64,000 nt of DNA, from the NCBI RefSeq assembly GCF_053078305.1, contig NZ_CP166879.1. One strand, given 5' to 3'. Each line of letters starts with the position of its first letter. The stretch's first letter is position 1. The translations under genes were made by a program, and so were the position numbers. The notes below the pieces were generated by a model. That model was not told the DNA's origin. It saw only the letters and a program-made list of their open reading frames with translations, and did not search any database. Of the stretch, positions 52,878 through 63,621 are shown one piece after another.

Positions 52878-53420
52878 TCAGTTTACCTGCACAGACCCAC
52901 CTTTTAACCTGTGTGTTGCCTGCGCCTGACTGTCAATATAAAGCGCGCGTATCTGAAGCAGTCCATCCGCCGATAAAACAATTTTTGACTCGCCGCACTG
53001 GAGCACTAATTCTTGTTTCGCTGTCAAAACAACTCGCTCTGTATTTAGTTCGTCTTCAGTACATTTTTTCGTCTCTGAATGATATCTTTCTGTTAAATTC
53101 TCCGGAAGTATTCCGGTCACTACCGGATGAGAATAATTGCCAGAGAGAAACTGCACAGTGCATAATCGTCCGTTATACTCCGTAGTTACAGTTCCCAGAC
53201 CCAAAGCTGCAACAGGTTTATCTTCATGAGGACACTGAATCAATATTTCTCCAGAGTCTTTGACACTGACAATTCTGCCGACAACCAACACAGGGATATC
53301 ACTGACATGCGCCTGGGATTTACTAGCCTGATGAGATAAAATATTTTCCAGCAAATGTGTTGTACTGGTCAGTTCCTCTTCTGGCTGTGGGACGTATATA
53401 TCATGCAGTTCCTTTATCAT
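52878..53420 (-). CDS. Hypothetical protein (180 aa) translationally coupled to vgrG
   Basis: Start overlaps the vgrG stop at 53420. Confidence 0.4.
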   Translation of the reverse strand: MIKELHDIYVPQPEEELTSTTHLLENILSHQASKSQAHVSDIPVLVVGRIVSVKDSGEILIQCPHEDKPVAALGLGTVTTEYNGRLCTVQFLSGNYSHPVVTGILPENLTERYHSETKKCTEDELNTERVVLTAKQELVLQCGESKIVLSADGLLQIRALYIDSQAQATHRLKGGSVQVN

Positions 53421-55408
53421 TAGTTCTCCAGAATTTTCTTCCCTTTCATATTCATATCACCATCAGCTTTATAAAACTGATCACCTGTTGTTCCCAACGA
53501 CAATTCATGTCCATTTATAGTGATGTAGCCATCTTTATCCATGCGCAAAGTACTCTTACCACATACAAACTCGATGGAATCGCCTACTGTCACTGTAAGA
53601 GTTTCCCCTACAGTAACAGACTGAGATTTATCCACAGCCTCGGTATCATTCCCTGTTACCTTACTATCCTGATCATTACCTACGCTCTTGCTACGATTGT
53701 TCGTGACAGTCAGAGATTGATCATTTCCTACGCTTACATTTTGATCGTGAGTTACAGTGACGGTCTGATCATGTCCCCCGGCATTCTCCTTACCCACCGT
53801 CACCGTCTGGCCCAGCCCAACGGTAATACTCTGGTTGTTACCGATGGTTTCGGTATGGTCCACTTTCACATCAGTAGTGCGGTTGTTCAGCACTTCCGTA
53901 TCCATGTTCTTCTGTGCATGGATATAGACCTGTTCACCGCCCGTGGCGTCTTCAAACCGCAGCTCGTTAAATCCGCTTCCTTTATAGGTCTTCGACCGTA
54001 TCGTCATCTGCGTCTTCGTCCCCGGCAGACTCCCCGGCGAACGGTTGTCCTCATGGTAGGTCCGCCCCATGATTATCGGCTGGTCCGGGTCGCCGTTCAG
54101 GAAGTCTACAATCACTTCCTGGCCGATGCGCGGTATCGCCAGGTTACCGAACCCCGGCCCCGCCCACGCCTGCGACACCCTCACCCAGCATGAACTCGCC
54201 TCCGTCATCCCGTGATAACGGTCCCAGTGAAACTTCACCCGTACCCGGCCATGTTCATCGCAGAAGATTTCCTCTCCCGCAGGCCCGGTGACAATGGCAC
54301 TCTGCGGGCCGTCCACCTTCGGTTTGCTTTGCACCCGTGGACGCCACGTCCGGTCCGCCGGTATCACCTCTAACTGATTGCCCAGCGTGGTTCCTCTCCC
54401 CTGGCTGCCGTGCAGCGCCTGCGGCTGGCTTCCTGACAGTATGCTCTGTACCACCTGCCATTCACGGTTCAGCATCTTCTGCGGATGCCCCGTCAGCGTA
54501 AACCGCGTTCCCGGCCACAGCCGCGGCGAATTACTCTGCCCTGTGGCCTTTTCCGCATCACTGCGCAGGCTGTCCATCTGGTACAACGTGAAATCCTTGC
54601 CGTGCTGTTCATCCTTGAACCTTCCCGGATAATCAAATATTTCATACTGCGCCAGCTGTCCGTTCAGGTTCTCACCCTGCTGCTCATACATCCCCGGCCA
54701 GTCCGGCACCTTAAACGTGTAATCCTGGCTCTGCACCGACGACGGGCGGACATGCGCCTCATAACGGAACATACTGACACACTCTGTCTCCGCTCCTGCC
54801 GATGTGTCCGGGTTAAACGGAAGCTCTCCCGCCTGTGACAGCCCCGCCACATCGTCGCACAGCGTCAGCTTCTGCTCCGGACTGTCCGCCGCAAACCGCT
54901 CAAAGAAGAAAATCCCCTCCTCCGCCCACAGCCGCGCCAGAAACGCCAGGTCGCTTTCCCCGTACTGCACACAGAACTCCCGCGCCGGATGGTCCTCATA
55001 AAACAGCGGCGTCCACTCCGTGACGCCGTTCTCGTTCAGTAACGTGGCCGATATCGTCCGGATATCCTGCTGCTGGAAGATACGGAAGTTCTGCCGCAGC
55101 CCACACCGCCATAACGGCGGCTGGATACACAGGTGATAACGCATCTGCCAGCCGTTATTCTCCTGCATCCCAAACCCCGCCACCACGCCGGTGACATAAC
55201 GCAGCGGGATGACGCCCTGCCAGATGGTCAGCGTCGCCTTCTTCTCCAGCAGCATCTCCGCCGTCTGCATAAAAGAGTCGCTGGCAACATCCACACTCAT
55301 CACAAACGGATATGACCCGCCCTGGATTAACCGGAAGCTCACCACTGCAAAGGTGTCCGGCTCCTGGCCGTCAACCTCCAGCGTAAAGCGCAGACCTTTT
55401 AAGGACAT
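53420..55408 (-). CDS. vgrG: T6SS spike protein VgrG (paralog 2)
   Basis: 662 aa, MSLKGLRFTLEVDGQEPDTFAVVSFRL...; gp27/gp5-like body and C-terminal beta-helix repeats (TVGxxQSxTV). Confidence 0.9.
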   Translation of the reverse strand: MSLKGLRFTLEVDGQEPDTFAVVSFRLIQGGSYPFVMSVDVASDSFMQTAEMLLEKKATLTIWQGVIPLRYVTGVVAGFGMQENNGWQMRYHLCIQPPLWRCGLRQNFRIFQQQDIRTISATLLNENGVTEWTPLFYEDHPAREFCVQYGESDLAFLARLWAEEGIFFFERFAADSPEQKLTLCDDVAGLSQAGELPFNPDTSAGAETECVSMFRYEAHVRPSSVQSQDYTFKVPDWPGMYEQQGENLNGQLAQYEIFDYPGRFKDEQHGKDFTLYQMDSLRSDAEKATGQSNSPRLWPGTRFTLTGHPQKMLNREWQVVQSILSGSQPQALHGSQGRGTTLGNQLEVIPADRTWRPRVQSKPKVDGPQSAIVTGPAGEEIFCDEHGRVRVKFHWDRYHGMTEASSCWVRVSQAWAGPGFGNLAIPRIGQEVIVDFLNGDPDQPIIMGRTYHEDNRSPGSLPGTKTQMTIRSKTYKGSGFNELRFEDATGGEQVYIHAQKNMDTEVLNNRTTDVKVDHTETIGNNQSITVGLGQTVTVGKENAGGHDQTVTVTHDQNVSVGNDQSLTVTNNRSKSVGNDQDSKVTGNDTEAVDKSQSVTVGETLTVTVGDSIEFVCGKSTLRMDKDGYITINGHELSLGTTGDQFYKADGDMNMKGKKILEN

Positions 55409-55450: not shown

Positions 55451-55717
55451 TTAGTTATGACGTACAATAAAATGACTGGCTATCAACGTTGCTCCGCAGG
55501 TTGTTTTATCACCATCATGTGCAGCCTGTTTTCCATTAACAGAAAAACCCTGTCCAGATGCTATAATATTCGTCGTTCCATGCCCCTCTATCGGGCAGAT
55601 TACTTGGTCACCATCACAAGCTACAGGCTGACCTTCATGCAAAAAATCCGCACTGGCACTAATAACAATGCCTCCATGAGATGTTTTATCACCGAGAGTG
55701 ATTAATGATTTCATCAC
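55451..55717 (-). CDS. PAAR-domain protein
   Basis: 88 aa; ...GQPVACDGDQVICPIEGHGTT... Confidence 0.75.
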   Translation of the reverse strand: MMKSLITLGDKTSHGGIVISASADFLHEGQPVACDGDQVICPIEGHGTTNIIASGQGFSVNGKQAAHDGDKTTCGATLIASHFIVRHN

Positions 55718-60765: not shown

Positions 60766-62882
60766 TATGATTTACCTTTATCACATGGACAATCTTCTAG
60801 TGGACAACTTCCATCCGGTTTCATAGCACACAAATCATCAAAAGGTTTACCTTCATCGGGATCAACAACAGATTGACTGATTGCAGGAGAGTCGCCAGTA
60901 CTGGCAGAGACATTACCTTTCAGGTAAATATTTCCTGCTTCAATAGTTACCCCCCCACCGTCAATGGTTATTTTCCCTCCAGGACCACGTAACACCATCC
61001 TCTGTCCAGCATCCAGCAATATTTCCGCACTCTGCTGTTTTATTCTTTCCCCCGCATCAAGAAATGATTCTCCTTTCACCTGATGATCATAACTTCCGCC
61101 AGTTTGCTGACTGTAATTTGCCGCAATTTGTTCCTTGCGGTGATTACCGACGGTTTCGATATGATCTTTACCAATCTCCACTTTATGATCTCGGGTGATA
61201 ACCAGATAGTCGTCCTGCGTGATTGCTGTACGGCGATCATGACCAATAAGCCAAGTTTCGTCATGCCCAGTAGTATGTTTTTTATCATTTGTAATTTTAA
61301 TAACTTCATCGTGACCAACCACTTCACTACGATCATTGCCTATAGTGGTTGCTTCATTGTGATTGATAACATTGATTTGATCTCTTTCGGCATGGATATA
61401 CACCTGCTCTTTGCCGGTCGCATCGTCAAATCGCAACTCGTTAAATCCGCTCCCCTTATAGGTCTTCGACCGTATCGTCATCTGCGTCTTCGTCCCCGGC
61501 AGACTCCCCGGCGAACGGTTGTCCTCATGGTATGTCCGGCCCATGATTATCGGCTGGTCCGGGTCTCCGTTCAGGAAGTCAACAATCACCTCCTGACCCA
61601 CCCGCGGTATCGCCAGGTTACCAAACCCCGGCCCCGCCCACGCCTGCGACACCCTTACCCAGCATGAACTCGCCTCCGTTGCCGGGTTATACCTGTCCCA
61701 GTGGAACTTCACCCGTACCCGGCCATGCTCGTCGCAGAAAATCTCTTCTCCCGCAGGCCCGGTGACAATGGCGCTCTGTGGCCCGTCCACCTTCGGTTTG
61801 CTTTGCACCCGTGGACGCCACGTCCGGTCCGCCGGTATCACCTCTAACTGATTTCCCAGCGTGGTTCCCTTTCCCTGGCTGCCGTGCAGCGCCTGCGGCT
61901 GGCTTCCTGACAGTATGCTCTGTACCACCTGCCATTCACGGTTCAGCATCTTCTGCGGATGCCTCGTCAGCGTAAACCGCGTTCCCGGCCACAGCCTCGG
62001 CGAATTACTCTGCCCTGTGGCCTTTTCCGCATCACTGCGCAGGCTGTCCATCTGGTACAGCGTGAAATCCTTGCCGTGCTGCTCGTCCTTGAACCTTCCC
62101 GGATAATCAAATATCTCATACTGCTCCAGCTGTCCGTTCAGGTTCTCACCCTGCTGCTCATACATCCCCGGCCAGTCCGGCACCTTAAACGTGTAATCCT
62201 GGCTCTGTACCGACGACGGGCGGACATACGCCTCATAACGGAACATACTGACACACTCTGTCTCCGCTCCTGCCGATGTGTCCGGGTTAAACGGAAGCTC
62301 TCCCGCCTGTGACAGCCCCGCCACATCGTCGCACAGCGTCAGCTTCTGCTCCGGACTGTCCGCCGCAAACCGCTCAAAGAAGAAAATTCCCTCCTCCGCC
62401 CACAGCCGCGCCAGAAACGCCAGGTCCGACTCCCCGTACTGCACACAGAACTCCCGCGCCGGATGGTCCTCATAAAACAGCGGCGTCCACTCCGTGACGC
62501 CGTTCTCGTTCAGTAACGTGGCCGATATCGTCCGGATATCCTGCTGCTGGAAGATACGGAAGTTCTGCCGCAGCCCGCACCGCCATAACGGCGGCTCAAT
62601 ACGCAGGTGATAACGCATCTGCCAGCCATTGTTCTCCTGCATGCCAAAACCCGCCACCACGCCGGTGACATAACGCAGCGGGATGACGCCCTGCCAGATG
62701 GCCAGCGTCGCCTTCTTCTCCAGCAGCATCTCCGCCGTCTGCATAAAAGAGTCGCTGGCAACATCCACACTCATCACAAACGGATATGACTGGCTCTGGA
62801 TTAACCGGAAGCTCACCACTGCAAAGGTGTCCGGCTCCTGGCCGTCAACCTCCAGCGTAAAGCGAAGACCTTTTAAGGACAT
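60765..62882 (-). CDS. vgrG: T6SS spike protein VgrG (paralog 1) with distinct C-terminal extension
   Basis: 705 aa; first about 497 aa nearly identical to the 53420..55408 paralog, then a different Cys-rich C-terminus. Confidence 0.9.
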   Translation of the reverse strand: MSLKGLRFTLEVDGQEPDTFAVVSFRLIQSQSYPFVMSVDVASDSFMQTAEMLLEKKATLAIWQGVIPLRYVTGVVAGFGMQENNGWQMRYHLRIEPPLWRCGLRQNFRIFQQQDIRTISATLLNENGVTEWTPLFYEDHPAREFCVQYGESDLAFLARLWAEEGIFFFERFAADSPEQKLTLCDDVAGLSQAGELPFNPDTSAGAETECVSMFRYEAYVRPSSVQSQDYTFKVPDWPGMYEQQGENLNGQLEQYEIFDYPGRFKDEQHGKDFTLYQMDSLRSDAEKATGQSNSPRLWPGTRFTLTRHPQKMLNREWQVVQSILSGSQPQALHGSQGKGTTLGNQLEVIPADRTWRPRVQSKPKVDGPQSAIVTGPAGEEIFCDEHGRVRVKFHWDRYNPATEASSCWVRVSQAWAGPGFGNLAIPRVGQEVIVDFLNGDPDQPIIMGRTYHEDNRSPGSLPGTKTQMTIRSKTYKGSGFNELRFDDATGKEQVYIHAERDQINVINHNEATTIGNDRSEVVGHDEVIKITNDKKHTTGHDETWLIGHDRRTAITQDDYLVITRDHKVEIGKDHIETVGNHRKEQIAANYSQQTGGSYDHQVKGESFLDAGERIKQQSAEILLDAGQRMVLRGPGGKITIDGGGVTIEAGNIYLKGNVSASTGDSPAISQSVVDPDEGKPFDDLCAMKPDGSCPLEDCPCDKGKS

Positions 62883-63062
62883 AATGACCTCCCTGATTTA
62901 TTCACGGACCAAATGATTCTCACCATGCAGCAAAGGGTGCCAGTGCAGCGTTACACTCATCTTTACATTTTCAGGTACGCTACCGCCCGGGTTTCCGGCA
63001 TCCGCCATCTCCCTCATGAAAGCGTAACTCCTTACTGACACTCATTTTTTACACGTACAAAA

Positions 63063-63095
63063 ACAACATCCTGCACGAAGGCAGGATGTTGTTGA
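63063..63095 (-). terminator. Hairpin (attenuator/terminator) downstream of hcp
   Basis: caacatcctgc/acgaagg/caggatgttgttg, followed on the transcribed strand by a T-rich run. Confidence 0.45.
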
Positions 63096-63102
63096 CTCAG
63101 AT

Positions 63103-63621
63103 TTATGCTTCCAGCGGTGCACGCCAGTCATCGGCACCAGAAGTACCGGATTTGATGTGCTCCCACTCAACCTTACGGTATGCCAGTGATACTGCGAGCA
63201 ATTGCGTAAACTCACGCTGTGCAGGGTCCTGGCAGTGCGGCATGTGCAGGTTCATGTCCACAATCGTCGCGTCAGTAAGACGTGTGGTGAAGTAGTGCTC
63301 CTGCTTGCCTTCAACTGAAGTACGCCACCAGTGCAGCTCCACTTTCGGCAGCATTTCACCGGAGGCCAGCGCGTTGTACAGCAGCGGAACGGCTTTGTTC
63401 AGCGCCACGGTGAAAATGAACGGTTTGTGCGCGCGCTGCCCGGAAGGTTGACCAGACTGTGGATCGGTTGGAACAGTAACGTTATGCAGAAACTCCTGCA
63501 CCAGCATTTCATCTTCGTGTCCCTGCACGTAGATATTGCCGACAGAATCTGCGGTGAAAGCACCGGCAGTGATGTTCCCCTGGGTCTGACCTGTAATTGA
63601 AATGTAACATGGGGTTGGCAT
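63103..63621 (-). CDS. hcp: T6SS tube protein Hcp
   Basis: 172 aa, MPTPCYISITGQTQGNITAGAFTADS... Confidence 0.9.
   Translation of the reverse strand: MPTPCYISITGQTQGNITAGAFTADSVGNIYVQGHEDEMLVQEFLHNVTVPTDPQSGQPSGQRAHKPFIFTVALNKAVPLLYNALASGEMLPKVELHWWRTSVEGKQEHYFTTRLTDATIVDMNLHMPHCQDPAQREFTQLLAVSLAYRKVEWEHIKSGTSGADDWRAPLEA

Follow-up and report, generated by a model that had tools for sequence, protein, structure and literature searches.

The hcp–vgrG junction of the window

We analyzed a 64,000-nt stretch of DNA (assembly GCF_053078305.1, contig NZ_CP166879.1), referred to throughout as the window, in which the gene for Hcp, the tube protein of a type VI secretion system (T6SS), is followed on the same strand by the first of its vgrG genes. 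The two genes are separated by a 220-nt intergenic spacer (Table 1), the stop codon of hcp occupying positions 63103–63105 on the minus strand. In identical Escherichia coli DNA, RefSeq names the hcp product 'Hcp family type VI secretion system effector'. Judging by the orientation of the open reading frames (ORFs), the first vgrG begins a co-directional array that runs to ∼41.5 kb and is made up of vgrG, chaperone, effector and immunity genes, and Pfam matches and ORFs place a DUF4123 chaperone-like gene, a VasX_N toxin and more cargo 3′ of vgrG on the same strand. The cargo has a GC content of 33–42%, and the array as a whole is ∼20 kb long and AT-rich. In E. coli PS10-3, which carries identical DNA, the locus adjoins fadE-ivy-yafV, and hcp-vgrG is divergent from tssB-tssC-tssE-...-tssM.

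Farther along the array, a short ORF (∼55500–55715, minus strand) that reads MKSLITLGDKTSHGGIV... lies between a putative immunity gene and the second vgrG (53420–55408), and its sequence looks like that of a PAAR-type spike tip protein.

Table 1. Features at the hcp–vgrG junction, in the order in which they would be transcribed
Feature	Position in window	Strand	Basis
hcp (T6SS tube protein), 172 aa	63103–63621	−	Pfam T6SS_HCP, E = 1.5e-32; ORF list
Hairpin, putative terminator and 3′ stabilizer	63062–63093	−	Fold energy, window scan, covariation, EHEC orthologue
U-rich tract UUGUUUUUGU	63057–63066	−	Sequence; conserved in 25 homologues
Conserved non-coding block, ∼100 nt	62941–63040	−	nhmmer profile, spacer alignment
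Predicted ops element GGCGGTAGCGTA	62976–62987	−, non-template strand	11/12 match to consensus GGCGGTAGCGTG
First vgrG, 705 aa	60765–62882	−	Pfam Phage_GPD, Gp5_trimer_C, Phage_base_V

A 13-bp hairpin follows the hcp stop codon

Past the end of hcp, the minus-strand RNA reads UAA-AUCUGAGUC-[AACAACAUCCUGC]-CUUCGU-[GCAGGAUGUUGUU]-UUUGUACG (stem arms in brackets), which folds into a perfect 13-bp stem with six G–C pairs and a 6-nt loop, starting about 9–10 nt past the stop codon. The 5′ arm spans positions 63093–63081, the loop 63080–63075 and the 3′ arm 63074–63062. Its fold energy is −20.3 kcal/mol (z = −4.37), and none of 200 dinucleotide shuffles folded equally well. This is the longest perfect hairpin of the entire window, at 13 bp versus 10 bp for the next two, and dinucleotide shuffling of the window, repeated 100 times, never produced a perfect stem of at least 13 bp. 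Apart from it, perfect hairpins with stems of at least 10 bp occur in the window only at 4741–4767 and 8059–8081. A sequence-only reading of the window had proposed a stable stem–loop between hcp and the first vgrG, and both the structure and the gene identities (by Pfam) are borne out; the site it gave is also correct, though its coordinates of 63063–63095 are off by 1–2 nt.

The same reading placed a T-rich run after the stem. Such a run is present, with eight T in 10 nt in its DNA form (TTGTTTTTGT, 63066–63057), but it lies partly within the stem: the first five nucleotides of the U-rich tract form the A–U-rich stem base, and the rest lies 3′ of the stem. The tract comes after an 8-bp GC-rich stem core, while the full 13-bp stem is followed by only four T in the first 8 nt. 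This is why a simple rule-based terminator scan did not list the hairpin. The scan returned two overlapping terminator-like matches within the vgrG coding region (62479–62502, minus strand), which are probably due to chance, since the three rule-based matches in the region fall below the shuffle mean of 5.6. A permissive Rfam search of positions 62000–64000 gave only a chance match to mir-338 (E = 0.91), and therefore no known RNA family applies.

The stem is maintained by compensatory changes across the Enterobacteriaceae

Within E. coli, 549 genomes carry the spacer allele of the window at ≥95% identity, in one copy per genome or two at most. A second allele, found by blastn in about 2,190 genomes including O157:H7, is 76–77% identical to it over 128 nt of the spacer, and its annotated context is again hcp-vgrG with a divergent tssB. 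Compared with the window, the O157 hairpin shows two fully compensatory pair changes (A–U to G–C and U–A to G–C) and a different loop, and it is 32 nt long with 14 pairs versus the 13-bp stem of the window. The sequence that follows the hairpin, TTTTTGTA, is identical in the two alleles.

We then scanned one genome per species with the Hcp protein, which gave 80 loci with Hcp at 81–100% identity. Downstream of hcp, Escherichia whittamii and E. albertii carry a recognizably homologous hairpin of the form (A)ACAGCAU...AUGCUGU(U)UUUUGUA, as do Citrobacter, Pseudocitrobacter, Yokenella, Buttiauxella, Atlantibacter, Lelliottia, Trabulsiella, Phytobacter, Superficieibacter and Enterobacter. It lies at an offset from the hcp stop codon of 5–19 nt, with start positions of +6 to +19 among the homologues. 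We aligned 25 homologous 3′ ends of hcp, drawn from many genera of the Enterobacteriaceae; compensatory changes on both sides of the stem were found at 8 of the 13 pairs, and 94.2% of the cells were paired. The observed covariation and pairing were reached by none of 500 shuffles, and sliding the 3′ partner out of register lowered pairing to 33–61%. G–U wobbles outnumbered A–C mismatches by 25 to 4 across the homologues, which indicates that the structure has been selected in the RNA of the hcp strand rather than in DNA or in an antisense RNA. The tract CTGTTTTTGTA is likewise conserved, with 6–9 T in 12 nt in all 25 homologues.

A terminator-like hairpin starting no more than 30 nt past the hcp stop codon was found at 56 of the 80 gammaproteobacterial loci, versus 23 of 400 shuffles, and at 38 of the 53 loci in which vgrG is the next gene. 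The 56 loci include hairpins that are not homologous to that of the window, in Dickeya, Providencia, Proteus, Gilliamella, Aeromonas and Photobacterium.

A conserved block carrying a predicted ops element lies downstream of the hairpin

The spacer is not conserved at the hairpin alone. In a whole-spacer alignment, the ∼100-nt block that follows the hairpin is better conserved than the hairpin itself, and an nhmmer profile of the block finds it directly 3′ of the hairpin in 19 species loci (L006–L014, L016–L021, L023, L032, L033 and L038) with E values of 1e-14 to 1e-28, in addition to the window and five E. coli loci (L001–L005). Its core in nearly all aligned species is GGCGGTAGCGTG, the consensus of the ops element, and most homologues match this consensus at 12 of 12 positions. 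The window differs from it by an A instead of a G at position 12, with the core GGTAGnnT intact, and contains no other ops match in its 64 kb. On this sequence evidence we identify GGCGGTAGCGTA as a predicted ops element, the site at which RNA polymerase pauses and RfaH is recruited. The element lies in an untranslated spacer ahead of a ∼20-kb co-directional array. Among the 80 Hcp loci, 17 have GGCGGTAGnnTn at ∼75 nt past the hairpin, and in one further locus it sits at +332. The rest of the block is conserved too (GUGUCAGUAAGGAGUUACG... and GGGAGAUGGCGGAUGCCGGAAAC), and an upstream GGCGGAU half-repeat may recall the JUMPStart layout.

Conservation of the block is at the level of sequence, and other explanations for it were tried and set aside. 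No conserved reading frame was found in the alignment of the block. A small spacer ORF (a 47-aa ORF with a GTG start at 62898–63041, with peptides of the type 'MADAGNxGGSVPE') was rejected: the alleles of the window and E. whittamii and of O157 contain indels of 4 and 8 nt, the ATG is lost in Buttiauxella brennerae, Buttiauxella A111 has a 2-nt deletion, and in the 3′ part the nucleotides are conserved while the frames differ. Nor was a conserved RNA structure demonstrated, as the long outer helix proposed by RNAalifold shows almost no compensatory changes and several breaks. With regard to promoters, no sigma-70-like promoter was found on the minus strand of 62883–63102, and no conserved sigma-70 promoter was found at any column of a 16-species spacer alignment. 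A candidate sigma-54 promoter at CTGGCACCCTTTGCTGC, judged by reading, has the wrong GG-to-GC spacing, and its GG is not conserved in O157.

The block stays with the 3′ end of hcp even where the next gene is not vgrG. In two Lelliottia loci (L021 and L023) and in Citrobacter werkmanii (L032), 2–2.6 kb of small effector- or immunity-like ORFs intervene between the ops block and vgrG, and the module therefore belongs to the 3′ end of hcp rather than to vgrG. Spread of the spacer together with orphan vgrG genes was considered and rejected: the partial match in ST1193 (H24) is an IS26 rearrangement and no orphan vgrG, the spacer is present in one copy per genome or two at most, and the block remains with hcp where another gene follows.

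Insertion sequences have remodeled the hcp–vgrG junction in some strains. In E. coli CFSAN061771 (L003), an IS3 element occupies the expected place of vgrG, just 3′ of the conserved block. In ST1193 strain MDBZ1340 (L005), the IS26 rearrangement removed hcp and the hairpin and left vgrG and its leader, the match to the window ending at 63052, just short of the hairpin.

Experiments on orthologous and analogous stem–loops

The spacer between hcp3 and vgrG3 of enterohemorrhagic E. coli (EHEC) EDL933 has been dissected experimentally under the name h3R (Vazquez-Lopez et al., Microbiol Spectr 2026, PMC13141884). It was divided into a terminator (region I), a predicted promoter (region II) and the 5′ UTR of vgrG3 (region III), with the region I hairpin starting at +8 of the hcp3 3′ UTR and comprising 32 nt and 14 pairs (PMC13141884). 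The two spacers share their flanking genes, their locus and alignable sequence that includes the hairpin: each belongs to an hcp-vgrG pair on the fadE-ivy-yafV side, each has its stem–loop just past the hcp stop codon, each has a 32-nt hairpin that runs into TTTTTGTA, and they are ∼76% identical overall. By sequence comparison, then, region I and the hairpin of the window are orthologous, and the conserved block corresponds to part of regions II and III. Unlike EHEC h3R, the window carries the other E. coli allele, with its 13-bp rather than 14-bp stem and its own loop.

In EHEC, region I both insulates the downstream gene and stabilizes the upstream message. Deletion of region I increased read-through RNA into vgrG3 and doubled a downstream mCherry reporter, while hcp3 mRNA fell to 6% and Hcp3 or GFP was halved (PMC13141884). 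In the wild type, RT-PCR gave separate hcp3 and vgrG3 amplicons and no hcp3–vgrG3 co-transcript, and the authors prefer two separate operons with an internal promoter (PMC13141884). A Tac promoter placed upstream of hcp3 yielded Hcp3 without VgrG3 or PAAR, and replacing h3R with a Lac or AraBAD promoter still gave no VgrG3 (PMC13141884). The paper makes no mention of RfaH or ops (PMC13141884).

A stem–loop also follows hcp in the T6SS4 of Yersinia pseudotuberculosis, in which, as a further likeness, the hcp transcript lies far above those of the downstream genes (PLoS Pathog 2025, PMC12503267). Mutation of the stem–loop after hcp4 cut only hcp4 mRNA and left downstream transcripts unchanged, and the authors take it for a loop that protects the 3′ end, not for a terminator (PMC12503267). 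It belongs to another T6SS, in which tssE comes next, and shares no sequence homology with the window. A Vibrio cholerae paper considered as a further comparison (PMC3166118) offers no more than the prediction of a single terminator closing the hcp-1/vgrG-1 operon, and was uninformative.

The order hcp–terminator–ops recurs in a second T6SS family

An ops element following hcp has been studied in the Sci1 T6SS of enteroaggregative E. coli (EAEC), in a preprint that quotes the ops consensus used above and locates ops1 between hcp and clpV/tssH (bioRxiv 10.1101/2025.02.08.637259). Mutation of ops1 or of rfaH abolished expression downstream of ops1 and not upstream of it; a side remark in the preprint notes ops elements in the EDL933 cluster, and a terminator is nowhere mentioned (bioRxiv 10.1101/2025.02.08.637259). 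When we inspected the hcp–tssH spacer of EAEC 042 (L086:39170–39343), we found a canonical terminator directly past the hcp stop codon, GACGGACAGG-GCAU-CCUGUCCGUC followed by AUUUUUAUUUUUU, and after it a second hairpin and then GGGCGGTAGCGTGCCTGA. Both this spacer and that of the window are thus untranslated post-hcp spacers with ops, and the likeness extends beyond the element itself, the extended sequences being nearly identical (GGGCGGTAGCGTGCCTGA versus GGGCGGTAGCGTACCTGA in the window). In contrast, the T6SS family and gene order differ, and the spacers are unrelated except for ops. Two unrelated T6SS families thus present hcp, terminator and ops in the same order. The RfaH dependence demonstrated in EAEC Sci1 would, by analogy, hold for the window as well; the window itself contains no rfaH. 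In another E. coli strain, CFT073, the T6SS loci show RfaH ChIP peaks, and the ops sites sit in 5′ leaders (mBio 2022, PMC9765446).

A model for transcription past hcp

Stem–loops that follow a much-needed gene and set the ratio of upstream to downstream product within one transcription unit have precedents that resemble the layout seen here. The intercistronic stem–loop of the puf operon and the malE-malF REP are classical attenuating terminators or decay barriers, and in the hly operon the hlyA-hlyB terminator is suppressed by RfaH recruited at an ops element that lies upstream of the terminator. The difference from hly is one of order: in the window, ops lies downstream of the hairpin, and RfaH therefore cannot suppress the hairpin and can only protect what has already passed it.

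Far more of the Hcp tube subunit is required than of the VgrG spike. With modest confidence, we favor a model in which the hairpin acts as a Rho-independent terminator of the hcp transcript that also protects the 3′ end of the message, and in which the polymerases that escape it load RfaH at ops. Transcription would begin in the divergent tssB–hcp promoter region and cross hcp, and the RNA would fold 9 nt past the stop codon, the 13-bp stem running into the U-tract and most polymerases being released. Release would leave a short hcp mRNA whose 3′ end is shielded from exonucleases. Termination by the window allele is probably incomplete, and read-through polymerases, presumably the only traffic to reach ops, would enter the untranslated spacer with no ribosome following. 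About 75 nt on, these polymerases would pause at ops and load RfaH, and the RfaH-loaded polymerases could then resist Rho and H-NS across the ∼20-kb AT-rich vgrG–effector array. Points that count against the model are the four U in the 8 nt past the full stem, for which the rule-based scan passed over the hairpin, the A at position 12 of the ops sequence, the two-operon interpretation of the EHEC locus (PMC13141884) and the unchanged downstream transcripts of the Yersinia mutant (PMC12503267).

This model retains what the sequence-only reading had suggested, a partial terminator that yields more hcp than spike and effector transcript, and the suggestion is supported by the anatomy of the hairpin, its covariation and the experiments on the EHEC orthologue. 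It goes further in one respect: the behavior of that orthologue supports, by analogy, a role for the hairpin in stabilizing hcp mRNA, such that the excess of hcp would reflect stability as well as termination. Stabilization would be the second contribution to the excess, and possibly the larger one. The hairpin would in this way help to explain how hundreds of Hcp subunits per VgrG spike are obtained from one locus.

The strongest competing explanation, though we regard it as unlikely, is that the hairpin is an essentially complete terminator and that the vgrG–effector genes form a separate operon transcribed from a spacer promoter, which would probably be weak or depend on an activator. The 5′ leader of that operon would then contain ops, an arrangement typical of classical RfaH operons. 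The separate hcp3 and vgrG3 amplicons in EHEC, with none spanning the junction, favor this explanation and weigh against read-through as the source of vgrG transcripts, as do the production of Hcp3 without VgrG3 or PAAR from the Tac promoter, the software-predicted promoter in region II (PMC13141884) and the 5′-leader position of ops in CFT073 (PMC9765446). However, our searches found no sigma-70-like promoter on the minus strand of the spacer and none conserved in the 16-species alignment, a result that tends to favor read-through over a separate vgrG promoter. In addition, end-point RT-PCR across a hairpin of −20 to −25 kcal/mol can fail technically. VgrG3 was also absent when a Lac or AraBAD promoter replaced h3R (PMC13141884), and its absence is therefore not simply a promoter problem. 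Finally, the Sci1 layout of hcp, terminator and ops is a mid-operon one, in which essential downstream genes need ops1.

It is improbable, in our estimation, that the hairpin is only an mRNA decay barrier, whereby an endonuclease cuts a polycistronic RNA, the hcp segment is shielded from 3′ exonucleases and the hcp excess arises from segmental stability alone. This explanation would fit the Yersinia mutant, in which only hcp4 mRNA was lowered (PMC12503267), and the fact that the drop in hcp3 mRNA was the largest effect of deleting region I (PMC13141884). A decay barrier has no need of a U-tract, whereas CTGTTTTTGTA belongs to the best-conserved portions of the element, and the same deletion raised read-through RNA and the downstream reporter (PMC13141884). 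A perfect palindrome with IS26 and IS3 rearrangements nearby in some strains could also be a DNA-level element (serving a protein as its operator, for example, or marking a recombination or mobile-element end) or a chance palindrome, but we consider this very improbable indeed, as the inner stem and the loop vary in sequence with pairing kept, the reverse of what an operator would show, the strong G–U over A–C asymmetry points to RNA, the hairpin always lies 5–19 nt past the hcp stop codon, Rfam gives no repeat-family match and the spacer occurs once per genome or twice at most.

Under the favored model of termination followed by RfaH loading, the hairpin and ops could together constitute a more general device. 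We propose, tentatively and with less assurance than we attach to the model itself, that they form a conserved two-part gate placed 3′ of hcp and shared by no fewer than two unrelated T6SS families of enterobacteria. An 'hcp only' default would be set by the terminator, and RfaH loading on escaping polymerases would decide whether the spike, the effectors and, in Sci1, the structural genes are expressed. If true, such a gate would join two accounts that have stood apart, h3R without RfaH and ops1 without a terminator. The production of Hcp3 without VgrG3 or PAAR in EHEC, despite strong swapped-in promoters, could likewise be explained by such a gate, which predicts that the missing activating input is RfaH supply or ops integrity. 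On this view, RfaH may license the expression of T6SS spikes and toxins in E. coli and related bacteria once a default stop has been passed, an idea that bears on the silence of the EHEC T6SS in the laboratory. The hairpin itself is ordinary and already known, its orthologue having been characterized in EHEC; the post-hcp terminator–ops module is a modest synthesis, and we found no description of it as one unit in the papers we consulted.

A hairpin upstream of hcp

The 5′ UTR of hcp contains a further, 9-bp hairpin, AACCCGUCG-GGGAUUAA-CGACGGGUU, at 63664–63689 on the minus strand, ∼45–70 nt upstream of the hcp start, with a fold z of only −2.4. Many Hcp loci have a counterpart in which, by eye, the stem sequences differ, the pairing is seemingly kept and the loop reads (G/A)GGAUUA. 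The GGA of the loop together with the AAGGAG Shine–Dalgarno sequence resembles a two-site CsrA target, and the hairpin is also reminiscent of a loop that has been put forward as 5′ protection for Yersinia hcp4 (PMC12503267).
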